From contig JAZQCF010000004.1 of the NCBI GenBank assembly GCA_045546075.1, positions 21,157 through 85,156 on the forward strand: a stretch of DNA of 64,000 nt, given 5' to 3'. This DNA comes from Candidatus Enterousia sp. Its GTDB lineage: Bacteria; Pseudomonadota; Alphaproteobacteria; Rs-D84. Under the pieces are notes generated by a model. That model worked only from the letters and a program-made list of their open reading frames with translations, had not been told where the DNA came from and made no database searches. A program made the position numbers and the translations under genes. Numbering within the stretch: position 1 is the first letter of the stretch; each line of letters starts with the position of its first letter. Shown one piece after another: positions 1,767 to 39,099 of the stretch.

Positions 1767-2537
1767 TCACATCAAAATTTCATCACCGTGAACCAATAAA
1801 TATTCGGGGCCACGCCGCACAACCAATGCGCCGGTATCATTTATACCAATCAATTCGACCATTTCGCCACGATATTTTACCAAACCGTTAAGTCCCGCCG
1901 CCGATTCCATCCAACGCCGCCGCACCGAATCGAATTCTGCATCCATCCATTTATCTAATTTCTTGGCCAATCGTGATAATAAATCGGTCAAATCTATATT
2001 ATTTGCGTATCTGGCCAACTTGGTTGTTTGGTATTCTGTAACGGTTGGATTTGAATTAACGTTTATTCCAATTCCAACGATAACGAATCGACCTGCGTAT
2101 TCTATCAAGACACCTGAAACCTTTTTCCCATCAATCAGTATATCATTTGGCCACTTTATCGTTGCATCAATTCCATATGATGCCAGTGTATCTATAATCG
2201 CGACCGCCACGGCATACGCAAGGCGTGGATCACGTTCCGGACTTTTGAATATAAAACTTGCATACAAATTACCATGATGTGAAACCCATTTACGACGATA
2301 TCGACCACGGCCGGCATACTGTGCGGCGGCGCAAATCACCGTATGGTCAGTTGCCGTACCATTTGCAATCATATCATGCGCATAGGTCTGGGTACTGGAA
2401 ATTTTGTCAAAAGATAATACTTTATATCCCGCCAATTTTGAATATTCCGTTTTCGTTTTTAATAAAATCGCGCCCGAACAGTTTGCGCAACCCATATATC
2501 GCCGTATCAACCGTATGTGTTGTTGTATCGCGCACAT
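1767..2537 (-). CDS. birA: biotin--[acetyl-CoA-carboxylase] ligase BirA
   Basis: GRGRYRRKWVSHHGNLYASF and KWPNDILIDGKKVSGVLIE are classic BirA catalytic motifs. The true start may be the internal M (MGCANC, ~2495). Confidence 0.8.
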   Translation of the reverse strand: MCAIQQHIRLIRRYMGCANCSGAILLKTKTEYSKLAGYKVLSFDKISSTQTYAHDMIANGTATDHTVICAAAQYAGRGRYRRKWVSHHGNLYASFIFKSPERDPRLAYAVAVAIIDTLASYGIDATIKWPNDILIDGKKVSGVLIEYAGRFVIVGIGINVNSNPTVTEYQTTKLARYANNIDLTDLLSRLAKKLDKWMDAEFDSVRRRWMESAAGLNGLVKYRGEMVELIGINDTGALVVRRGPEYLLVHGDEILM

Positions 2538-2964
2538 AACCCAATGCCAACTTTAATTCGTCCGCGCTCATCCCGCCGCTTTTTTTAAGCCGCACCACTA
2601 TTTGTCGCTGAATAGGTGACAAAGATACAGACCGCCCAAACACCGATGCCAAAACCTTGGTATCGTCCAGTGCCGTTATTATTATGGATTTTAATTCCAA
2701 CGATGTTACCGGCGAATTCAATTTCAAAGAATCCAAATCGACATCCGCCAAATTTGCATCATCCACCGATGTGGCATTCAAATCTAACACTATTGCGCGC
2801 CAATATGGGTCGGTTGTAAAAATCCTGATTCCAGTCAACATATTAACAGAATAAACAAACAATCGCGCGGTGTCCAATAAAAAAGGTGCCGGCACATATA
2901 CGCGCACCGGCACCGATGTTCTGGTCCATATTGAAACTTTAACCGATTCGTTTGTGTTCCCCAC
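2422..2964 (-). CDS. OmpR/PhoB-type winged-helix response-regulator-like protein with a degenerate receiver
   Basis: The C-terminus LSPIQRQIVVRLKKSGGMSADELKLALGYVRDTTTHTVDTAIYGLRKLFG matches the trans_reg_C pattern. Upstream, LTGIRIFTTD..IVLDLN resembles a receiver domain but the N-terminal acidic pair is absent. The 5' third of ORF 2422..3159 overlaps the HTH ORF out of frame, so the start was taken at MVGNTNES. Confidence 0.4.
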   Translation of the reverse strand: MGNTNESVKVSIWTRTSVPVRVYVPAPFLLDTARLFVYSVNMLTGIRIFTTDPYWRAIVLDLNATSVDDANLADVDLDSLKLNSPVTSLELKSIIITALDDTKVLASVFGRSVSLSPIQRQIVVRLKKSGGMSADELKLALGYVRDTTTHTVDTAIYGLRKLFGRDFIKNENGIFKIGGI

Positions 2965-3187
2965 CATCCACAAATTTTGTAAAATCTTGGATAGACGAAC
3001 CGGTTGAAGCCAAAATCTTGGAAATACTGTTGGTTGACGGCCAACGGGGTTGTCCATCCTTGGTCCAACGTTTACTTTTGTTAAATGTTGTCGGGTCCAA
3101 ACCACTGCACCGCGCCAGGCCGGAACACGACATTCCGTGCTCGGTTGCGAATTTTTCAATGGCGCGCCAAATATCTTCGTGTGTCAT
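2939..3187 (-). CDS. XRE/cI-like helix-turn-helix DNA-binding protein
   Basis: 82 aa. DIWRAIEKFATEHGMSCSGLARCSGLDPTTFNKSKR is a typical HTH_XRE / phage-repressor N-terminal domain. Confidence 0.55.
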   Translation of the reverse strand: MTHEDIWRAIEKFATEHGMSCSGLARCSGLDPTTFNKSKRWTKDGQPRWPSTNSISKILASTGSSIQDFTKFVDGGEHKRIG

Positions 3188-3304
3188 ATTTCCCCCCCTT
3201 GCCTAATAAAATATTATTCCGCCACGCCCGATTAAGCAACAAGCAGTATTTCCTAGGATTTTAAGGGGTCTACATTGACATAAAAAATATTTTGACAAAA
3301 ATAC

Positions 3305-3333
3305 TTGACAAATGCTTTTGATTGTATTATATT
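3305..3333 (+). promoter_or_regulatory. sigma70-type promoter (TTGACA, 17-bp spacer, TATATT)
   Basis: The -35 TTGACA at 3305-3310 and -10 TATATT at 3328-3333 are read directly, separated by exactly 17 bp. A second TTGACA lies 14 bp upstream. Confidence 0.5.
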
Positions 3334-3340
3334 TCGATTC

Positions 3341-3529
3341 GTCAAAGGGGCAAAACCCGATGACCAGGCACTTAAATGTCTGTGGGGCCCAGAGATTCCA
3401 GACTCCCTCCTACATTCTCTCTCCTCTGGACTTTGGACCCCAACCCAAGTTTAGAATGGCCATTTCTTTTTCTCCTTTCCTTCCTTTCAGGCCATTCGGA
3501 AATACCGCCGGCAACGGCGGTGTTTTTTT
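3341..3529 (+). ncRNA. candidate small RNA (~190 nt) between the promoter and an intrinsic terminator
   Basis: A rho-independent terminator ACCGCCG-GCAA-CGGCGGT followed by TTTTTTT lies at 3504-3529. The body is pyrimidine-rich with long imperfect pairing (GGGGCCCAGAG / CTCTGGACTTTGGACCCC). The only overlapping ORF (3312..3533) is low-complexity. Confidence 0.35.
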
Positions 3530-3544
3530 ATAATAATTCCAAAT

Positions 3545-3745
3545 TTTCCCCATTTTTATTGTCAAAGGCCTGTGAAACCGCGGGTTTTTATGTGTATGCG
3601 GGGTGGTCAAAAACGAACGTTTTTGTCCAGCGTTTTTTTAATGTTTTTCAAATTATAAGAAATGGCGGAAATCCGCCATTTTTAATTGACAAAAAACCGT
3701 TTTAGACTGGTCACAAAAAACGTTCGTTTTTTGTTATCATTATTG
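3545..3745. repeat. repeat X, copy A (~200 bp); an inverted copy lies at 9858-10058
   Basis: About 90% identical to the reverse complement of 9858-10058. It contains the hairpin AATGGCGGAAATCCGCCATT. Confidence 0.8.
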
Positions 3746-3754
3746 GTGTAAAAA

Positions 3755-3959
3755 CAACGCCGTCAGGCACGACAAGAGAGCCGTCATCCCGGCGCAGGCC
3801 GGGACCCAGTGTGAACGAAGTGAACACTTGCGTCGCAGACAGTGAATGTTTGTCACGCGCAAAGCGCGTTCTAAATTCCCTGCGGGGCAGGTGCGCGCTG
3901 TCGCTCGGCCTGGGTACCGCCCTTCGGCGGTATGACGAGAGAAAGCCGGGATGACGGTG
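3755..3959. repeat. repeat Y, copy A: a 118-bp core (3805-3922) flanked by hairpin inverted repeats (CCGTCATCCCGGCGCAGGCCGGGA ... GCCGGGATGACGGTG). It lies immediately upstream of gene 3982
   Basis: The core is near-identical to 9646-9763 on the same strand. The terminal inverted repeats were read directly. Confidence 0.8.
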
Positions 3960-3981
3960 AAAAAAAACAAAGAGGGAAAAT

Positions 3982-4515
3982 ATGAGCAAAAAAACATTAT
4001 TACTTGGTGCTGTCGCATCAATTATCGCAATCAATTCAGTTTTCGCAGATACAACCGTTACATCAAAACAATATGTTGATACCACGCGCCAGGCAACAAT
4101 ACCGGCAACCGGCACTAACGCATCGACACCGGGTACAACCGTTGTCACATATACCGGTACCGCGGGACAAATCGGCGAACGCGGGATTGTGGAACCACCG
4201 GTAGACTATGCCGATATGCCAGATGCGAATAAACTGGTTACGATGGGACAGATGGCAGATTTTGCCGATTCTGTTTTTGACGATATAGACGATCTTGGCA
4301 ACCAGATAGAACAGGTAACCAACCTGCCGGAAACGACTGTTACGTATAAAACATGTTACCAGGAAGTAAACGGCGATTGTATTCTATGGAATTTAACCGA
4401 TAAAGATGTTTATGGCAATTATTGTACCCAGACCACAGATTGCCCGCCGTGCGGAGAAATGTCTCATCCGTATTGCAGTGCAAACAAATGCCTGTGTGCA
4501 CCAGACTTCAGCTAA
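3982..4515 (+). CDS. secreted protein, paralog 1 (signal peptide, VTSKQYVD motif, Cys-rich C-terminus with CILWNL)
   Basis: The RBS AGAGGGAAAAT precedes the ATG. The N-terminus MSKKTLLLGAVASIIAINSVFA is signal-like. It shares N- and C-terminal motifs with gene 8776..9579, while the middle differs. Confidence 0.7.
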   Translation: MSKKTLLLGAVASIIAINSVFADTTVTSKQYVDTTRQATIPATGTNASTPGTTVVTYTGTAGQIGERGIVEPPVDYADMPDANKLVTMGQMADFADSVFDDIDDLGNQIEQVTNLPETTVTYKTCYQEVNGDCILWNLTDKDVYGNYCTQTTDCPPCGEMSHPYCSANKCLCAPDFS

Positions 4516-4516
4516 A

Positions 4517-4544
4517 AACACGCCCGTGTGGGCGTTTTTATTTA
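4517..4544 (+). terminator. rho-independent terminator
   Basis: ACGCCCGTGTGGGCGT followed by TTTTATTT. Confidence 0.6.
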
Positions 4545-4549
4545 CCAAA

Positions 4550-5515
4550 TTACCTGTCAAACACGACCGCCAATTCCCAATGCGGGGAACCAACAAATTG
4601 GTCAAATGCCGCAATGTCGCGCACGGCATATCCGGCACGCATCAAGATTTGCGCATCGCGTCGCAGTGTATTTGGATTACACGAAACATAAATGACACGC
4701 CGAACATTTGAACGCGCCAATTCGCTGCACTGGGCATCTGCACCGGCGCGGGGCGGGTCCATTACCACCAAATCATAATTATTCAGCATTTTCGCAGACA
4801 ATGGATTTTTGAACAAATCGCGTTTATTAAATGGGCCAACTATATCAAATCCGTCTACGCTCGTTTTACTCGCTCCGTCGCGACCCTGTCCGTCAGCATT
4901 CAGCGCATATGTGAAATTTCCAATACCACAGAACAAATCGGCAATATGTTTTGCGGCCGCGGCATTTTTCAAAACAAACGCGCGCATTGCGGATTCACTG
5001 GCCACCGTTGGTTGCAGAAATGCCCCCACCGGGTAATCGACCACCACATCACCAAAACGAACGCGTGGCACGTCATTTTGACACACGACCGCACCATTCC
5101 ACGCAACACGCAACAAACCCGCCTTGGCGGCAGCATTTTTGAATTCGCGCGAAAAATATGGAACATTTGATGTAACCGACAAATCAATTCCATTTTCACA
5201 CGCCGTTATCAATGCCGAACCCGCCCCATCAAACGGCAATGCAGATATTTTTGGCAAAACCCGATTTATTTCCGGTACTAAATTTGGACAATGAGTTATC
5301 GGGACTATATTTTTCGTTCCGCGCACAAAGAAACCGAAACGCCCATTGGCAAACGCAAAATCCGCCCGGCGACGCATACCCGCATGAGTCCAAAATGGCT
5401 CAAAAGACAATTCCCAATCACTGATTTGTTCTATCTTTTTATCACGATAATCGGGTGCGGTAAAATCATACCTGCACCCGCCACAAATTCCAAAGAACGG
5501 ACACGTTTTCATCAC
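4550..5515 (-). CDS. 23S rRNA (uracil-5-)-methyltransferase RumA/RumB (TrmA) family, with an N-terminal 4-Cys cluster
   Basis: CPFFGICGGCRY (Fe-S Cys cluster), DLFCGIGNFT (SAM motif I) and VSCNP (catalytic Cys region). Confidence 0.75.
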   Translation of the reverse strand: MMKTCPFFGICGGCRYDFTAPDYRDKKIEQISDWELSFEPFWTHAGMRRRADFAFANGRFGFFVRGTKNIVPITHCPNLVPEINRVLPKISALPFDGAGSALITACENGIDLSVTSNVPYFSREFKNAAAKAGLLRVAWNGAVVCQNDVPRVRFGDVVVDYPVGAFLQPTVASESAMRAFVLKNAAAAKHIADLFCGIGNFTYALNADGQGRDGASKTSVDGFDIVGPFNKRDLFKNPLSAKMLNNYDLVVMDPPRAGADAQCSELARSNVRRVIYVSCNPNTLRRDAQILMRAGYAVRDIAAFDQFVGSPHWELAVVFDR

Positions 5516-31110: not shown

Positions 31111-31551
31111 ATGTCATATAAAGACAACCTGCCTAAGACGATGGATGAGTTAAAAGCACTATCTTTTGATGAACGAGCGCGATTATGGGCAAAATACTCA
31201 CAATATCCATTCAAACGGCAAATGCGGTCGCTTTGGTATTACATTCAATGTGACAGGTTAAATCTTCGAATTGAACATAAATATTTGGTAAAAATTCAAA
31301 AATATAAGGATAATCCAGAACAGTGTTTAGACCATGCGTGCCCAAACAAATACAACTTTGTCCCAGGTACAATTTTAACAAGATATTTCAAAGGGATAAA
31401 ATACACCATCTTAGTCAACGACGACGGTAGTTTTTCTTATAATGGCGATAAATATTCAACTTTATCGGCGATAGCAACCAAGATAGCAGGTATGAAAATG
31501 TCTGGTAATTTCTTCTTTGGAATAAACAAAAGGTATAAACATGACAATTAG
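31111..31551 (+). CDS. DUF2924-family protein (serine-recombinase accessory protein)
   Basis: GTILTRYFKGIKYTILVNDDGSFSYNGDKYSTLSAIATKIAGMKMSGNFFFGI matches the conserved DUF2924 C-terminal block. Sits immediately 5' of the recombinase as in known pairs. Confidence 0.6.
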   Translation: MSYKDNLPKTMDELKALSFDERARLWAKYSQYPFKRQMRSLWYYIQCDRLNLRIEHKYLVKIQKYKDNPEQCLDHACPNKYNFVPGTILTRYFKGIKYTILVNDDGSFSYNGDKYSTLSAIATKIAGMKMSGNFFFGINKRYKHDN

Positions 31552-33162
31552 GTGTGCTATTTATACCCGTAAATCAACCGAACATGGATTGGAACAGGAG
31601 TTTAATTCTCTGCAAAACCAAGAAGAGTCGTGCAAGGCATATATAGCATCACAATCGTTTAATGGTTGGCAATACTATAAGACTTACAGTGATGCGGCGA
31701 TTTCTGGCGGAACTATGGAACGACCGGCATTAAAGCAAATGCTGGATGATATGGCACATGGGTTAGTAAATACTGTGGTGGTATACAAGGTTGATCGATT
31801 ATCGCGTTCAATCTTAGATTTTCACAATATGATGAAATATTTTGAAAAATACGGTGCCAATTTTGTGTCTATTACCCAGTCATTTGATACCAGTACATCT
31901 ATGGGTAAATTGACATTAAATATGCTACTATCATTCGCACAGTTCGAACGTGAAGTATCAAGTGAACGTGTGCGTGATAAAATCCGTGCATCAAAGGCTA
32001 AGGGGTTATGGATGGGTGGTGCCCCACGTTTGGGGTATGATCTAATTAATAAAAAGTTGGTAGTAAGCCCAACCGAAGCAGAACAAGTCCGACACCTGTT
32101 TGAAAAATATCTGGAACTGCAATCTGTGAATGATTTAACTGAATACGCACGGCAAAATGGTATGTTTGGCAAACGATGGGAGACCGCAAAACGGCAAATT
32201 CGTGGTGGAAACCCCATATCTAAAATGAGCATGCATCGCATTCTGCGGGATAAAGTTTACATCGGTCAAATCGAAAACAAAAAAGAAGGTACTTTTGCCA
32301 AAGGTGAACACGAACCGATTATATCAAACGATTTGTTTAATCGTGTCCAAGTTGCGTTGGCTAATAACACAAACAACAAATCCCAAAGCACACATGCGTC
32401 GAATATATTGACCGGAAAATTATTTAATCACAATGGCACAAAGTTCATCAACCAAATGACCAGCGGTAAAGGCAAAAGAAAAATTCATTACTATGCAACC
32501 AAGGGATTTTATTTGACTGCCGCGTGTGTGGATGAGATTGTTATAAAAACAATAACCAATTTTCTGAACAGTGATATGTCTGATCTGCCCATCAATTTGG
32601 CCACCGCGTATTAAAACGAATTGATGTAACAAATATGAATTTCGCAGAAAAACGCAACCTAATTCAATCATTGGTTGAAAAAATTGTGTATTCGCAAGAA
32701 CAACTGATTTATACACTGACTATAGATGCGCAAAAATTACAGCCGTTTATCAAGGAGCATTATGTAAATCAAAATGTTGAGCCCATGGAATATATAATTG
32801 GCGACAACAGCATAACAATCACGGAAAAAGTATTCTTACGCAAATACGTCAACACGGTATACGACCGTGGTAAAAACGGTGTATTAAATGTCACCGACAA
32901 TAATCATTTAATTTTGAAAGCATTTGCAACGGCATGGAAATATAGGGAATTATACGAACAAGATGGCAATGTAGACAATGTGATACGTTCTGTTCGCACA
33001 TCACCAAGATTATTTTATAAATATTTATCTCTCTCGTATCTGAGTCCGTCAATCGTAAATAAACTATTAAGTGGCAAAATTAATATGGCAGTTAGAGATA
33101 TTTTGGATAAAGCATCAAGAAGTGATGACTTTGAGTATCAAGTCAAACTGTTTAATCTATAA
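31541..33162 (+). pseudogene. large serine recombinase interrupted by a stop/frameshift; ORF 31541..32614 carries the resolvase and recombinase domains, ORF 32635..33162 the C-terminal part
   Basis: N-terminal IYTRKST (catalytic Ser) and VYKVDRLSRS. The second ORF begins with KRNLIQSLVEKIVY, the conserved C-terminal helix motif of large serine recombinases. The two ORFs are in different frames, 20 bp apart. Confidence 0.5.
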
Positions 33163-33367
33163 ACACATTGATTTTTTATCTGTTTTATGTTATATTGTGT
33201 ATATGCCTGTTGGAAGGCTAGCCCGTTCGTGTAAAGATTTCATCATCCAACAAATAAAATAATATAAACCTCCGAGCTTATTATCTAAGCCAAGAGACTA
33301 CGAACGCAAAATCAATATTAGATAATGAACTTGGGCAACTCCGCAAATGCGGTAAAGGATTTATATT

Positions 33368-34048
33368 ATGAAAAATATAGACTACTTTAAATTACAAGCA
33401 AAAAATCTGCTTAAAGACTACCAAACACGCTATCTTTCTGAAGATGGTAATATTTATGAATACGAACCAAAGTTTTTTGATATCGTAGGTATATTCCTTG
33501 AATATGAAATAATGGACGATGATAAAAACTTTGAATTTAAATTAGGCAATGCCCAGCATTTAATCGCGCAAATGGCAGGGTTTGCCAGCTGGAAAGATTT
33601 AACAACAGCACCAGAAACAGATCAATTAAAAGCCCGTAAATCACTAGAAAGAAGTATTCATAATGAATATGGATATACAAGTTTTATATCGCATAATTTT
33701 ACACCTGATGGTCGTGAAATAACAGAATATTCACACGAACCATTGGATAGTGATGTGCCTTATCATGAAGAACTGTCTGGACAGGATTGGCAAGATGGTA
33801 TAGATGAATGCCGGCAAAACGGTATGGGGTTTGAACCAGACGAAATCGTTGAATGCTTACATTGTGGAAATCGGTTTCCATTTAAGGAAGTAAAGGTTAG
33901 ACGATTGAAGTCCGAGTACAACAATGGCAAAGAAGATGATTTTAAAGAAATTGTATGCAAACACTATCCAGAATGTAATGGTAATTTACTAGATTTAATA
34001 CCGGTGGAAATGCTTGATGCGAAAGGAGGTGATGAAAATGAGGAATAA
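33368..34048 (+). CDS. acidic hypothetical protein with C-terminal Cys4 (CxxC...CxxxxC) zinc-ribbon-like motif
   Basis: ECLHCGNRF...CKHYPECNG. Overlaps the HNH gene start. Confidence 0.4.
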   Translation: MKNIDYFKLQAKNLLKDYQTRYLSEDGNIYEYEPKFFDIVGIFLEYEIMDDDKNFEFKLGNAQHLIAQMAGFASWKDLTTAPETDQLKARKSLERSIHNEYGYTSFISHNFTPDGREITEYSHEPLDSDVPYHEELSGQDWQDGIDECRQNGMGFEPDEIVECLHCGNRFPFKEVKVRRLKSEYNNGKEDDFKEIVCKHYPECNGNLLDLIPVEMLDAKGGDENEE

Positions 34049-34331
34049 ATTTGCATCTTATTCTCGCAGTACGTCAAAAACATATACTAATGCCAATGGA
34101 TATAGAGTGTACAAAGATTCAGGGCAGCTAGTTCATCGTCATATGGCAGAAATAAAACTTGGTAGACCTTTACAATCTGGTGAAGTTGTGCATCATATAA
34201 ACCGAAACAAACAAGACAATCGTCCATCAAATTTGTATGTGTTCCATGACCAACAAGCACATTGGGCGGCTCATAAACAGGACGCCCAAAATTATGGCAA
34301 AGATTATAGTTTTAAAGGTAAAAATCATTAA
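34014..34331 (+). CDS. HNH endonuclease
   Basis: HRHMAEIKLGR...VVHHINRNKQDNRPSNL is an HNH motif. Confidence 0.65.
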   Translation: MMRKEVMKMRNKFASYSRSTSKTYTNANGYRVYKDSGQLVHRHMAEIKLGRPLQSGEVVHHINRNKQDNRPSNLYVFHDQQAHWAAHKQDAQNYGKDYSFKGKNH

Positions 34332-34440
34332 AAGTGCCTCAACGAAAATAGCCAAAGTATATCAATGCTTGCTATTTGGGCTAGTTTGATAAATTTGGCG
34401 ATATACATTGGAAATATCGTGGGTAAAAATCGCCAGAAAT

Positions 34441-34489
34441 GGGGCGAAAAAAACATCCCGTGGGATTACCACGGGATGTTCAATATTAC
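34441..34489 (-). terminator. terminator hairpin downstream of tRNA-Ser
   Basis: Minus strand AACATCCCGTGG-TAAT-CCCACGGGATGTT followed by TTTTTT. Confidence 0.45.
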
Positions 34490-34583
34490 TGGCGGATGGT
34501 GAGGGATTTGAACCCCCGAAGGTCTTATTTCATACCTTGTCCGATTTCAAGTCGGATGCATTCAACCGCTCTGCCAACCATCC
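34490..34583 (-). tRNA. tRNA-Ser (anticodon TGA), type II with a long variable arm
   Basis: Acceptor GGATGGT/ACCATCC. Anticodon stem TCCGA/TCGGA with loop CTTGAAA. Long extra arm. T-loop TTCAAAT. 3' GCCA is encoded. Confidence 0.85.
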
Positions 34584-35896: not shown

Positions 35897-36610
35897 TTAT
35901 TCCCGCCAGGTGACGGTTTCAAACATGGAATTTATCTCGTCACGCAGCGCGTTGTCATTAAAAAATGATTCACGCATGGCGGATGTTGTGCCGTGCGTTT
36001 CGTCTTCAAAATGTGGAATATATTTTTGCACCGCAAATTTTTTGAATCCGCGTGCCGCAACATCGTGTGCGATTTTACGCAAATCGTCCGGCGTGACAAA
36101 ACGCGGGTCGCATGTTGTGCGGACCTCGGCTTCCGTGCCGGTTTTCGCCAATACGTCCAAACTTTTTATCATACGGTCGTATGCGATATTTACACCCGTC
36201 AATTTTTCGTAATTATCTTTTGTGGCCTTGTAATCAATGCCAACCCAATCAATTAAATCCGCCGCCGTGGCCAGGTTTTCCGGATAAAAACCGTTCGTAT
36301 GCAGGCCGATTTTGAAACCCAATTCACGCACGCGGCGAATATATTCAAAAAGTGCGGGACCGTGCATTAATGCTTCGCCCCCGGAAAAGACAACGGCCTC
36401 AAGTTTACCGACACGTGTCTTTAACCAATCAAAAACTTTTTCGGGGTCATATTCCCCCGCCCCCATTGGTATCAGATGCGGGTTGGAACAATACGCACAA
36501 CGAATTGGACAACCAACCAAAAACAGCACACATGCCAATTTGCCCGGATAATCAATCGTTGTAAACGAAACCAACCCGCCAATCTGAATCGTATTCATAA
36601 CTTTACGCAA
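35897..36610 (-). CDS. nrdG: anaerobic ribonucleoside-triphosphate reductase activating protein (radical SAM)
   Basis: CPIRCAYCSNP radical-SAM cluster and the glycine-rich SAM motif VVFSGGEA. Confidence 0.85.
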   Translation of the reverse strand: MRKVMNTIQIGGLVSFTTIDYPGKLACVLFLVGCPIRCAYCSNPHLIPMGAGEYDPEKVFDWLKTRVGKLEAVVFSGGEALMHGPALFEYIRRVRELGFKIGLHTNGFYPENLATAADLIDWVGIDYKATKDNYEKLTGVNIAYDRMIKSLDVLAKTGTEAEVRTTCDPRFVTPDDLRKIAHDVAARGFKKFAVQKYIPHFEDETHGTTSAMRESFFNDNALRDEINSMFETVTWRE

Positions 36611-36788
36611 CCTTTTTCATTAATTCAATATGGCGTGCGCCGGCGGTCAGGCTGTTTGCCTCAGTAAACGTTTTGCGTTCACAGAATTCCGAATATTTAC
36701 CAATGTTAAAATTCCGTGTTGGACGAATAAATCCCATACTGCGTGAAAAAACTTCGCATGGTGTTCTTTGTTGTTCGTTTGCAATCAT
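36603..36788 (-). CDS. stand-alone NrdD C-terminal glycyl-radical domain protein
   Basis: SRSMGFIRPTRNFNIGKYSEFCERK aligns with the NrdD C-terminal RVCGYLGSPxxRPFNAGKQEEVKRR glycyl-radical region. Its own RBS AGGGAGAG lies 5 nt upstream of the ATG. Confidence 0.55.
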   Translation of the reverse strand: MIANEQQRTPCEVFSRSMGFIRPTRNFNIGKYSEFCERKTFTEANSLTAGARHIELMKKVA

Positions 36789-36829
36789 TATACTCTCCCT
36801 TTGTTTTGATTGTTGATTTATTGGTTTGT

Positions 36830-38872
36830 TTATGCCTTGTTGGATACATCATCGGGCGTTATCCCCAATTCTGCATCACACTTCGGGCAAAATTCGTGCC
36901 GACCCGGCAAATACCCATGCTTAGGACATATTGAAAATGTCGGGGTAAGTGTCATGTACGGAATCTTGTAGTTTTCAAATATCGTGCGAACGATTTTCTG
37001 GGCGGCTTCGCCAGATGAGACCGGTTCACCCATATACAGGTGCAACATCGTTCCGCCGGTATATTTGCGTTGCAATTCTTCCTGGTGTTCCAATGCGACA
37101 AACGGGTCATCCGTAAAGTTCACCGGTAATTGCGTGGAATTTGTGTAATATGGTGCATCGTGCGTGCCGGCGGTAATAATATCCGGGAAGTTTTTCACGT
37201 CTGTTTTCGCAAACCGATATGAACAACCTTCGGCGGGCGTTGCCTCAAGATTATACAGGTTGCCAGTTTCTTCTTGGAAATTTGCCAATTTTTCACGCAT
37301 AAAGTCCATTAAATCCAAAACGAATTTCTTACCAAACGGCGTTGCAATGTTTTCTTTGCCATCTGTAAAGTTCAAAACCATTTCGTTTGCGCCATTCACA
37401 CCAATGGTGGAAAAGTGATGATTCCAATTCCCCAGATAACGGCGCGTAAATGGATACAGACCATTTTCCATATGCTTGGTTATAACGCGACGTTTGATTT
37501 CCAGGACTTCACGTCCCATATTCATTAAACGTTCCAATTCACGATACAGGCCTTCGCGGTCACCCTTGTGACGATAGCCCAATCGCGCCAAGTTCATTGT
37601 AACAACACCAATGGAACCGGTCTTTTCCGCCGAACCAAACAGGCCCCCACCCCGCTTTAACAATTCACGCACATCAAGGCGCAACCGACAACACATTGAA
37701 CGAACATCTGTTGGATTCAAATCGGAATTCAGGAAGTTTTGAAAGTTTGGAATTCCGTATTTTGCCGCCAAATCAAACAAAGGTTTGACATTTGGGTGGT
37801 CCCACGGGAAATCGTCTGTGATGTTATAGGTTGGAATTGGGAAAGTGAACGGACGACCATGCGCGTCACCTTCGGTCATAACCTCGATAAATGCCTTGTT
37901 TATCATATCCATTTCGGCCTGAAGATCGCCATATGTAAAATCAACCTGTTTTTTACCGACGAACGGACGTTGTGCACGCAAATCTTTTGGACAGGTCCAA
38001 TCAAACGTAAAGTTAATAAACGGCGTTTGTGTTCCCCAACGACACGGCACCGCGCAATTAAACACCAATGTCTGCATCGCATTTTTCACGTCCGCATAGG
38101 ACATATTATCAATACGCACATACGGTGCCAAATAAGTGTCCACAGAAGAAAACGCCTGGGCCCCGGCAAATTCGTTCTGTAACGTGCCAAGGAAATTTAC
38201 CATATGCGAAATCGCGGTTGCCATATGTTTTGCCGGTTCGCATTGCAGGTAACCCGGAACACCATTGAAACCTTCGTATAACAATTCACGCAATGACCAA
38301 CCCGCACAATAACCCGTTAACCACCCAAGGTCGTGAATATGAATCGCCGCACTGCGGTGTGCATCGGCAATTTCTGCCGGGAACATATTTAACCAATATT
38401 CTGCGGTGACGCGCTCGCTGGTCCGCAGAATTAAACCACCGATAGAATAACCAATATTCGCATTTTCTTTGATACGCCAATTTGAACCACCAACATAACT
38501 TTCGATTATATCGACCGCATCAATGTTTGCGTTACGAATTTCCGCGTGTTTTTGACGATATATAATGTATGCCTCGGCCGTTTTGTATGCCTTGGCATCC
38601 ATCAATTTGCGAATCACAGTTTCTTGGATTTCTTCAACCGACGGCGTGCGCCCGATAAAACTATTGTCCAAATCACCAAGAACATCATTAGTAATTTGGA
38701 CAACGCGTTCGTCAGATATTTCATTTGTTGCGCATGCGGCACGTTTAATCGCCTCGTATATTTTTTTGGATTCAAATGCGGCAACCTCACCCGAGCGTTT
38801 CTTGACACTCATAATATTACAAATAAATGTTGGCACAGCACCCATTTTCGTATCTTTTTCGTTGTCAGACAT
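36830..38872 (-). CDS. nrdD: anaerobic ribonucleoside-triphosphate reductase, large catalytic part (ATP cone to Zn ribbon), lacking the glycyl-radical tail
   Basis: N-terminal ATP cone (VKKRSGEVAAFESKKIYEAIKRA), the class III RNR core, and a C-terminal zinc ribbon CPKHGYLPGRHEFCPKCD. Start at the ATG 38872 with a GGAG RBS. Confidence 0.85.
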   Translation of the reverse strand: MSDNEKDTKMGAVPTFICNIMSVKKRSGEVAAFESKKIYEAIKRAACATNEISDERVVQITNDVLGDLDNSFIGRTPSVEEIQETVIRKLMDAKAYKTAEAYIIYRQKHAEIRNANIDAVDIIESYVGGSNWRIKENANIGYSIGGLILRTSERVTAEYWLNMFPAEIADAHRSAAIHIHDLGWLTGYCAGWSLRELLYEGFNGVPGYLQCEPAKHMATAISHMVNFLGTLQNEFAGAQAFSSVDTYLAPYVRIDNMSYADVKNAMQTLVFNCAVPCRWGTQTPFINFTFDWTCPKDLRAQRPFVGKKQVDFTYGDLQAEMDMINKAFIEVMTEGDAHGRPFTFPIPTYNITDDFPWDHPNVKPLFDLAAKYGIPNFQNFLNSDLNPTDVRSMCCRLRLDVRELLKRGGGLFGSAEKTGSIGVVTMNLARLGYRHKGDREGLYRELERLMNMGREVLEIKRRVITKHMENGLYPFTRRYLGNWNHHFSTIGVNGANEMVLNFTDGKENIATPFGKKFVLDLMDFMREKLANFQEETGNLYNLEATPAEGCSYRFAKTDVKNFPDIITAGTHDAPYYTNSTQLPVNFTDDPFVALEHQEELQRKYTGGTMLHLYMGEPVSSGEAAQKIVRTIFENYKIPYMTLTPTFSICPKHGYLPGRHEFCPKCDAELGITPDDVSNKA

Positions 38873-39099
38873 ATCAAACTCCAATTTTTGTCAAAAAACA
38901 CAAGATATTGTGTTCATTTAATCGTTTCTATAACAATATATAGTTTATGTGTTTTTTTAACAACACATAAAATGCAATTTTTTTTATTTTTTTACTGGAC
39001 TTTTTGAAATGGCGGTTATCCGGGCGATTCAGGACCATAGTCTTTATGCATTTTGGACACCAAAATATGTTTTGTGTCAAAATTTTATAAAAAAATGCC

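Follow-up and report, generated by a model that had tools for sequence, protein, structure and literature searches.

The oxygen-sensitive enzyme that makes DNA building blocks, the class III ribonucleotide reductase (RNR), is encoded in Candidatus Enterousia sp. by two genes, in which the 61-residue segment that carries its radical glycine is specified as a separate small protein. The arrangement is real, and it is kept by selection in hundreds of genomes, including finished genomes of cultured bacteria. The locus lies in a 64,000-nucleotide stretch of contig JAZQCF010000004.1 (assembly GCA_045546075.1), referred to below as the window. An earlier note, made from the sequence alone, had reported an nrdD gene lacking its glycyl-radical segment and a small downstream ORF encoding that segment, and this observation was confirmed. 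Its interpretation, that this is a genuine two-piece class III RNR rather than the product of a frameshift error, was supported by our comparative data. In full-text literature searches, we found no description of a split class III RNR, although these did not extend to the key paper on the nrdD/nrdG genes of Cupriavidus necator (Alcaligenes eutrophus) (Siedow et al., 1999, J Bacteriol 181:4919), which may already mention the small ORF.

Anatomy of the nrdD–nrdG locus

All three genes lie on the minus strand. The large ORF (38884..36830) encodes 684 aa from a TTG codon, but homologs start at the ATG at 38872, and relatives align from residue 5, so the likely true start gives a protein of 680 aa. 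This protein contains an ATP-cone (residues 25–114), the NRDD barrel, and a C-terminal zinc site, and ends in CPKHGYLPGRHEFCPKCDAELGITPDDVSNKA. It matched positions 1–528 of the 562 positions of the Pfam NRDD profile (PF13597, E = 2e-171) and positions 3–652 of the 684 positions of NCBIfam NF006126 (1030 bits against a cut-off of 548), and was therefore assigned to the class III NrdD family (NF006126/TIGR02487). The finger-loop motif S-M-C-C-R-L (37682..37699; Cys398/Cys399), the expected acceptor of the radical, aligned with the SCCR cysteines C329/C330 of Thermotoga maritima NrdD, and an MCCR variant has been described in NrdDh4 (PMC4493059). The zinc site (36878..36928) has the form CPKH, nine residues, and CPKC, and C528/H531/C541/C544 were invariant in our alignment (A2). 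It is thus of the Cys3His type (C-x2-H…C-x2-C) and not the Cys4 type claimed in the earlier note. It aligned with the zinc ribbons of the P. copri and T. maritima NrdDs, and the alignments of the large subunit to solved NrdD structures ended there. The remaining tail (36830..36877), DAELGITPDDVSNKA followed by the TAA stop, terminates the protein 15 residues after the zinc site, so that no glycyl-radical motif (R-V-x-G-Y) is present on this polypeptide. When the tails of 77 relatives were compared, D-A/Q-E-L/I was conserved in the split forms, whereas the rest varied in length and sequence.

The large ORF is followed by a spacer of 41 nt (36789..36829), and not 42 as the earlier note had stated, which contains a GGGAGAG ribosome-binding site (RBS), with AGGGAGAG at 36800–36793, 4 nt before the next ATG. 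No terminator-like site was found in this gap, and a promoter-like match at 36816–36787 was at chance level and overlapped the start codon. The small ORF (36788..36603) encodes 61 aa with the motif SRSMG19F, and the predicted radical residue is Gly19 (codon 36734–36732). It matched NRDD profile positions 532–562 (E = 3.6e-4) with 19.8 bits, which is below the gathering score of 26.2 when the protein is searched alone, although relatives pass this threshold. It also matched the last ∼33 positions of three NCBIfam NrdD models, including positions 649–682 of NF006126. The two ORFs therefore divide the NrdD models cleanly between them, and the conserved glycine, whose absence from the small ORF had been set out in advance as grounds for rejecting the idea, was present. 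In comparison with one-piece NrdD, the small protein has an 11-residue leader and a conserved C-terminal extension of ∼20 residues. An unsplit relative with 50% identity reads CPKCGQPAEVYSRITGYYRPVQNWNDGK across the point at which this gene is cut. The radical-SAM activase gene nrdG (35897..36610) comes next. Its listed TTG start overlaps the small ORF, but the likely start is the ATG at 36598, 4 nt after the stop of the small ORF. Its product matched TIGR02495 NrdG2 (E = 5.8e-54, 182 bits against a cut-off of 131), as well as the Radical_SAM and Fer4_12 profiles.

Conservation of the split across genomes

To determine whether the split is an error, we compared the locus with those of its relatives. 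One alternative is a sequencing or assembly frameshift in an ordinary one-piece nrdD. The earlier note had raised a sequencing frameshift and had named the fusion of the two ORFs by a single-base correction as an outcome that would overturn its reading. Formally, this condition was fulfilled in the window, because the frame of the small ORF is open back into the last five codons of nrdD, and one indel there would fuse the two ORFs. However, 78 of 80 related genome loci plus the window kept the split. In 79 related and independently assembled loci from different studies and hosts, with NrdD identities from 95% down to 58%, the nrdD stop codon and the ATG of the small ORF were retained, and an AGGAG/GGAGG site lay 4–10 nt before this ATG in nearly all of them. 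In contrast, the relative frame (0/1/2 = 32/21/26) and the length of the gap (8–53 nt) varied freely, and loci 94% identical to the window differed from it in frame. Moreover, a fused product would carry about 46 residues between the zinc site and the glycine, against 11 in the unsplit relative. We consider that the frameshift explanation is refuted by these data.

The same data make recoding very unlikely. In 32 of the 79 loci, the two ORFs are in the same frame and are often separated by a single stop, which might suggest read-through or a programmed frameshift that joins them into one full-length NrdD. However, the frame relation and the spacer length are not conserved, there is no shared slippery motif, and a strong RBS and an ATG are conserved in front of the small ORF instead. 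Furthermore, in some phages, nrdG, an HNH endonuclease gene, or 2 kb of other genes lie between the two pieces, which excludes joining by the ribosome.

We next examined selection on the three genes. The dN/dS values were 0.05 for the large subunit, 0.13 for the small subunit (median 0.125 across the 79 loci), and 0.14 for nrdG, indicating purifying selection on all three, and the pattern R..E...R.MG..R....FN.GK..E..ER..F.E was invariant in the small protein across the 79 loci. nrdG directly followed the small gene in nearly all relatives. The host lineage is undergoing genome reduction, so a decaying nrdD that had lost its C-terminus, with the small ORF as a functionless remnant, was also considered. 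However, this is very unlikely in view of the selection on all three genes, the invariance of the glycine motif down to 58% NrdD identity, and the breadth of the split clade. In addition, the streamlined genomes of this lineage, which are under 1 Mb (PMC12306168), make the retention of dead genes unlikely, and the nrd locus of C. necator pHG1 is reportedly needed for anaerobic growth (Siedow et al., 1999).

The search for homologs of the small protein returned 315 sequences, of which the best 120 were all 55–92 aa. A profile of the small protein found 2,649 cluster representatives at 50% clustering, and the best 150 were all 47–118 aa. Of the 148 new sequences among them, 147 started with Met, 145 carried R-x-[MVIL]-G-[YFW], and only one carried the zinc motif. 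A second search of 5.8 billion proteins, with a fused profile, returned only close Enterousia relatives and thus added no diversity, but the best 120 large-subunit clusters covered only 89–91% of the fused query, confirming that they all lack the radical segment. The same three-gene operon was found in complete replicons of C. necator H16 (pHG1), Ralstonia solanacearum, and Paracoccus ferrooxidans, and a Bradyrhizobium japonicum plasmid carries the small gene next to nrdG. In C. necator H16, the large subunit, the small subunit, and NrdG are WP_011154155.1, WP_011154154.1, and WP_011154153.1, and OZ007020.1 is another complete carrier genome. Of 80 viral contigs, 19 were also split. In a phylogenetic tree, the split forms, which span Alpha- and Betaproteobacteria and phages, made up one clade with one apparent re-fusion, and a minimum of two state changes was obtained in 87 of 100 bootstraps.

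In a phage database, a megablast search with the operon found nothing, and a tblastn search with the small ORF gave only two weak hits, both of which proved to be unsplit NrdDs. A homing-endonuclease origin of the split was considered but not adopted. Among the viral loci whose spacer was read, only one phage relative (L109) carries an HNH_3/NUMOD4 endonuclease gene, exactly between the large and small genes, and L109 is nested among split phage forms that lack the endonuclease, so this insertion is probably secondary. In the class Ia NrdA of Aeromonas phage Aeh1, the gene is reportedly cut into two expressed pieces by the homing endonuclease mobE (Friedrich et al., 2007), whereas the window has only the 41-nt spacer and no endonuclease.

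A probable separate radical subunit and its relation to known systems

Based on these results, we infer with high confidence that this rumen or gut alphaproteobacterium of the Candidatus Enterousia group (order Rs-D84) has an obligate two-subunit class III RNR. In this view, the large subunit would supply the ATP-cone, the catalytic barrel with the finger-loop cysteines, and the zinc site, and the small subunit would supply the β-hairpin that carries Gly19. NrdG would use S-adenosylmethionine to abstract a hydrogen from Gly19, the small subunit would sit with its glycine loop inside the barrel of the large subunit, and the glycyl radical would then generate the thiyl radical on the finger loop, which starts nucleotide reduction, as in one-piece NrdD. 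What our analysis demonstrates is the gene anatomy and its conservation, the purifying selection on the three genes, the translation signals, and the homology of each piece to the corresponding part of one-piece NrdD; that the two proteins form a complex, whether the small subunit is activated while free or docked, and the selective benefit are inferences. There is no direct evidence here of expression, of a complex, or of a radical on the small protein, and the anaerobic reduction of nucleoside triphosphates was not measured. AlphaFold2 models of a fused large and small construct were unusable (mean pLDDT of 36 from the single sequence and 45 with a block alignment, on which no fold search was run), so docking rests on homology alone. 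A profile of the small protein gave no hit among PDB sequences, and a junction-spanning query aligned only as far as the zinc ribbon. The likeliest benefit is that oxygen, which cleaves the chain at the radical glycine, destroys only a cheap, replaceable 61-residue module and not the 680-residue enzyme.

The closest systems are the one-piece NrdDs with NrdG of phage T4, Escherichia coli, and, in subclass NrdDh, T. maritima and N. bacilliformis. These share the catalytic barrel, the ATP-cone, the finger-loop cysteines (MCCR being a variant of the NrdDh SCCR motif), the zinc site, the glycine motif R-x-x-G-[YF]…N-x-GK, and an adjacent radical-SAM activase, but in the window the glycyl-radical segment is a separately translated product with its own RBS and start codon. 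The analogy with GrcA drawn in the earlier note is only partly apt. GrcA/YfiD of E. coli and Y06I of phage T4 are autonomous glycyl-radical spare parts for pyruvate formate-lyase (PFL) (PMC8683613), and, similarly, the small protein here stands alone, carries a glycyl-radical loop, is presumably activated by the activase of the enzyme, and places the oxygen-labile element on a cheap polypeptide. However, neither the window protein nor seven relatives had a hit to the PFL-type Gly_radical family (PF01228; IPR011140), and only the NRDD C-terminus matched. Moreover, its partner has no radical domain of its own, so the small protein is an obligate subunit and not a back-up. [quoted passage not shown]

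The possibility that the small protein instead rescues a full-length, oxygen-damaged NrdD encoded elsewhere is unlikely. One NrdD-type small protein (P0260) does lie on a phage-like contig with no nrdD next to it. However, in every operon examined, the adjacent large subunit lacks a radical segment and needs one supplied in trans, and the genes are tightly linked and probably translationally coupled with nrdG. No second nrdD was found in the 64-kb window, although a whole Enterousia genome was not scanned for a second, intact nrdD or another RNR class, and these genomes are under 1 Mb.

Two other divided systems were compared. In the split class II RNR NrdJa/NrdJb of Pseudomonas aeruginosa, the catalytic chain is also divided near its C-terminus into two adjacent genes, both of which are needed (PMC4520616; PMC9669993). 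That enzyme belongs to a different, B12-dependent class, the separated piece carries the reducing cysteines and zinc finger rather than the radical, and it has been called a unique split RNR in a free-living organism. In class I RNRs (NrdA/NrdB), the stable radical is likewise stored on a separate small subunit and passed to a cysteine in the catalytic subunit, but this radical subunit, a ferritin-like protein with a tyrosyl radical or metal center, is unrelated, works by long-range electron transfer and not by inserting a loop, and depends on oxygen for the generation of the radical.

Implications for glycyl radical enzymes and annotation

Glycyl radical enzymes are always described as carrying the radical glycine on the C-terminal domain of the catalytic chain, and the only stand-alone radical modules on record are the spare parts for PFL. 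Here, the radical module of an essential enzyme is a separate gene product by default across a whole clade, which includes the genetically tractable C. necator H16, Paracoccus, and R. solanacearum. This provides a natural system for asking how the activase gains access to a loop that is buried in the active enzyme, whether the radical subunit exchanges, and whether splitting lowers the cost of oxygen damage in microaerobic or denitrifying niches. A more far-reaching possibility, which we regard as tentative and less likely than not, is that a large clade of class III RNRs in Proteobacteria and phages works as a true two-component glycyl radical enzyme, in which the ∼60-residue protein is a dissociable, exchangeable radical cofactor subunit that NrdG activates off the enzyme, that then docks into the barrel, and that is discarded and replaced after oxygen cleavage. 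If so, it would be the first obligate trans-encoded radical domain in any glycyl radical enzyme and a natural minimal substrate for studying how activases reach the buried glycine, and orphan copies on phage-like contigs (L086) would be spare parts for host NrdD, extending the GrcA principle to RNR.

The finding also bears on phylogenetic surveys of RNRs that score the presence of the radical domain, and on annotation. Public annotation of the small gene is inconsistent, in that it is called “nrdD” or “hypothetical” or is left uncalled in many records, and a large subunit read on its own would look like an NrdD with no radical site.

Structure of the nrd operon and verification of the split

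To determine whether the separation of the glycyl-radical segment from NrdD is genuine, we first re-examined the gene structure of the window, in which all the genes concerned lie on the minus strand. An ORF at 38884-36830 encodes 684 aa from a TTG, although relatives begin at the ATG at 38872, which gives 680 aa. [quoted passage not shown] After 41 nt containing AGGGAGAG (36800-36793, 4 nt before the ATG), a 61-codon ORF (36788-36603) reads MIANEQQRTPCEVFSRSMGFIRPTRNFNIGKYSEFCERKTFTEANSLTAGARHIELMKKVA. This small ORF matches the last 31 positions of the NRDD profile (532-562; E 3.6e-4, 19.8 bits, below the gathering score by itself) and also the last ~33 positions of three NCBIfam NrdD models. 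Four nucleotides after its stop, nrdG begins, most likely at the ATG at 36598 (TIGR02495 NrdG2, E 5.8e-54), and no terminator-like site separates the genes. The observation in the earlier note is therefore correct, with small corrections: the gap is 41 nt and not 42, and the zinc site is C-x2-H...C-x2-C and not Cys4. Just downstream of the nrd operon (window 31541-34583), there is a tRNA-Ser (34490-34583, minus strand), next to an HNH_3 endonuclease ORF (34014-34331) and a serine recombinase (31541-32614), and this region looks like an integrated mobile element.

The earlier note considered a sequencing frameshift as the alternative, and specified in advance that fusion of the two ORFs by a single-base correction would count against a two-piece enzyme. 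In this window, the frame of the small ORF stays open back into the last five codons of nrdD, so a single indel there would fuse the two. That condition is formally fulfilled, and only comparison with other genomes could decide. We therefore scanned one genome per species, which identified 593 relatives, and retrieved the best 80. These are gut and rumen Alphaproteobacteria, many named Candidatus Enterousia, with NrdD identity from 95% down to 58%. Both parts could be located in 78 of them, and all 78 have the nrdD stop and a separate small ORF. Across these loci plus the window, the small ORF is in frame 0, 1, or 2 relative to nrdD in 32, 21, and 26 cases, respectively, and the spacer is 8-53 nt. 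An AGGAG/GGAGG site lies 4-10 nt before the ATG in nearly all of these loci, and nrdG follows within a few nucleotides in most. Furthermore, loci that are 94% identical to the window differ from it in frame. This pattern excludes a sequencing error, and it also excludes a conserved frameshift or read-through signal.

We next examined whether the small ORF is a live gene. The small proteins share an invariant pattern, R..E...R.MG..R....FN.GK..E..ER..F.E, and their median pairwise dN/dS is 0.125. On a common subsample, the values are 0.05 for the large subunit, 0.13 for the small subunit, and 0.14 for nrdG. The host lineage (order Rs-D84) has fermentative, streamlined genomes under 1 Mb (PMC12306168), which argues against the retention of dead genes.

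Distribution of the split in protein databases and cultured bacteria

To understand how far the split reaches, we searched 5.8 billion proteins with the small ORF and obtained 315 hits, of which the best 120 are all 55-92 aa. The longer ones are upstream start calls in the alternative frame. A profile of the small proteins, run against 1.84 billion representatives at 50% identity, gave 2649 hits at E<=0.001, and the best 150 are all 47-118 aa. Of the 148 new ones, 147 start with Met and 145 carry R-x-[MVIL]-G-[YFW], whereas only one carries the zinc motif, which marks it as part of an unsplit protein. Three of the more divergent small proteins, with the W-N-x-G-K signature typical of one-piece enzymes, were traced to their contigs, and each follows a large gene that ends just after the zinc site. 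A profile of fused large and small sequences returned 120 large-subunit clusters that cover only 89-91% of the query, so they lack the radical segment. In one split large subunit (locus L167:2-274), the second zinc-site pair reads C-P-Y-D-H instead of C-x-x-C.

We also searched plasmids and megaplasmids with tblastn and found the small gene in 161 records, comprising Ralstonia (132), Bradyrhizobium, Cupriavidus, Paracoccus, Allochromatium, Acidiphilium, and others. In C. necator H16 pHG1, a 676-aa “ribonucleoside triphosphate reductase” ends ...CPRCDEEILARKRDQLAA, and is followed by a 66-aa gene that RefSeq labels nrdD (WP_011154154.1; ...ERQPCEVWTRVMGYHRPVSSFNVGKQGEH...) and then by the activase. 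Ralstonia solanacearum and Paracoccus ferrooxidans have the same layout. A Bradyrhizobium japonicum plasmid has the small gene next to the activase gene, with no large-subunit gene listed upstream. The small gene (for example, at 3465-3665, 3471-3647, and 3471-3653 of the retrieved loci L082, L083, and L084) is thus present in public genomes under inconsistent labels: it is “nrdD: anaerobic ribonucleoside-triphosphate reductase” in RefSeq C. necator and Bradyrhizobium, “hypothetical protein” in Ralstonia and Paracoccus, and in several other records nothing is annotated under the match.

Split and one-piece forms in phages

Of 80 IMG/VR loci with related NrdDs, 58 are one-piece, 19 are split, and 3 could not be judged. 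One-piece forms read, for example, CPxCGxxTEVYSRITGYYRPVQNWNDGK. Many of them (locus L081:2030-4438 and many of loci L107-L155) carry a C-terminal glutaredoxin/NrdH-like domain (TCPNCK...APTL) fused after the radical segment, suggesting a built-in reductant. The gene order of the split phage versions varies. The small gene may be directly downstream of the large gene, or it may lie after nrdG, as in viral loci L110 (4307-5156) and L166 (4752-5577), where the order is large-nrdG-small. In L102 (2417-6352), it lies about 2 kb downstream, beyond unrelated genes. In the viral contig L109, an HNH_3/NUMOD4 homing-endonuclease gene (4177-4545) sits exactly between the large nrdD gene (2474-4177) and the small radical-subunit gene (4520-4783). 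These layouts rule out joining of the pieces at the level of translation. Additionally, the called nrdD ORF of L166 (3058-4758) begins ...LTCGLFVHN|CAGWSL, which looks like the C-terminal end of an intein inserted at the conserved GY|CAGWS motif.

We then constructed a neighbor-joining tree of the catalytic region (539 columns, 50 dereplicated sequences). The tree separates an all-unsplit clade from a split clade that contains one nested unsplit pair (L090/L092, CEKCGEACEVWTRVMGY). The minimum number of state changes is 2 in 87 of 100 bootstraps and 3 in 13. The simplest reading is one old split followed by one re-fusion, although this rests on a distance tree and is tentative. The one-piece NrdDs of loci L090-L101, L103, and L104 (e.g., L092:1560-3326) have a very short junction (CEKCGEACEVWTRVMGYFRP), yet their radical segment has the signature of the split clade; they nest inside that clade, which suggests secondary re-fusion. 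The endonuclease of L109 is nested among split forms without it, so it does not show how the split arose.

Inferred mechanism and comparison with known systems

The large subunit has the features of subclass NrdDh. Its finger loop reads S-M-C398-C399-R-L, the “MCCR variant” of the SCCR motif described for T. maritima-type enzymes, and the small protein supplies the glycine loop. By homology, NrdG would abstract hydrogen from Gly19, the loop would sit in the barrel next to the finger-loop cysteines, and catalysis would proceed as in one-piece NrdD. Structure prediction did not help; a fused construct gave a pLDDT of 36 without an alignment and 45 with a shallow block alignment. The proposed benefit of the split rests on established chemistry: oxygen cleaves glycyl radical enzymes at the radical glycine (PMC3019208; PMC8683613), and in a split enzyme only a 61-residue module would be lost. 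Whereas the two-gene arrangement itself is real, this benefit, the stoichiometry, and whether activation happens on or off the enzyme are all inferences.

The interpretation put forward in the earlier note, a genuine two-piece class III RNR, is supported by our results. In every tested respect the system is a class III RNR except for one defining feature, in that the radical motif is not on the catalytic chain, and we consider it an obligate two-chain class III RNR that defines a large clade. The sequences are already in databases, but full-text literature searches found no description of a split class III RNR, although prior mention cannot be excluded because these searches did not extend to the 1999 paper on the A. 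eutrophus nrdD/nrdG genes. The arrangement parallels the split class II NrdJa/NrdJb of P. aeruginosa, which its authors called a unique split RNR in a free-living organism (PMC4520616). The small protein works like GrcA/YfiD in being a stand-alone radical module, but it is not a member of that family (no PF01228 hit), and it is obligatory and not a back-up. A 2026 review states that formate lyases are the only GRE class with small spare-part proteins (PMC13450708), and an earlier paper only speculates that other GREs may have them (PMC8683613). In this context, a 74-aa NrdD-type glycyl-radical protein (P0260) was found at 1180-1404 of locus L086, a phage-like 1.5-kb contig (Logan contig SRR22302347_57509) with no nrdD beside it. 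Upstream of this gene are a tail-fibre-like ORF and two small membrane ORFs, and downstream is a metallophosphoesterase-like ORF; it may be a phage-borne spare part for host NrdD.
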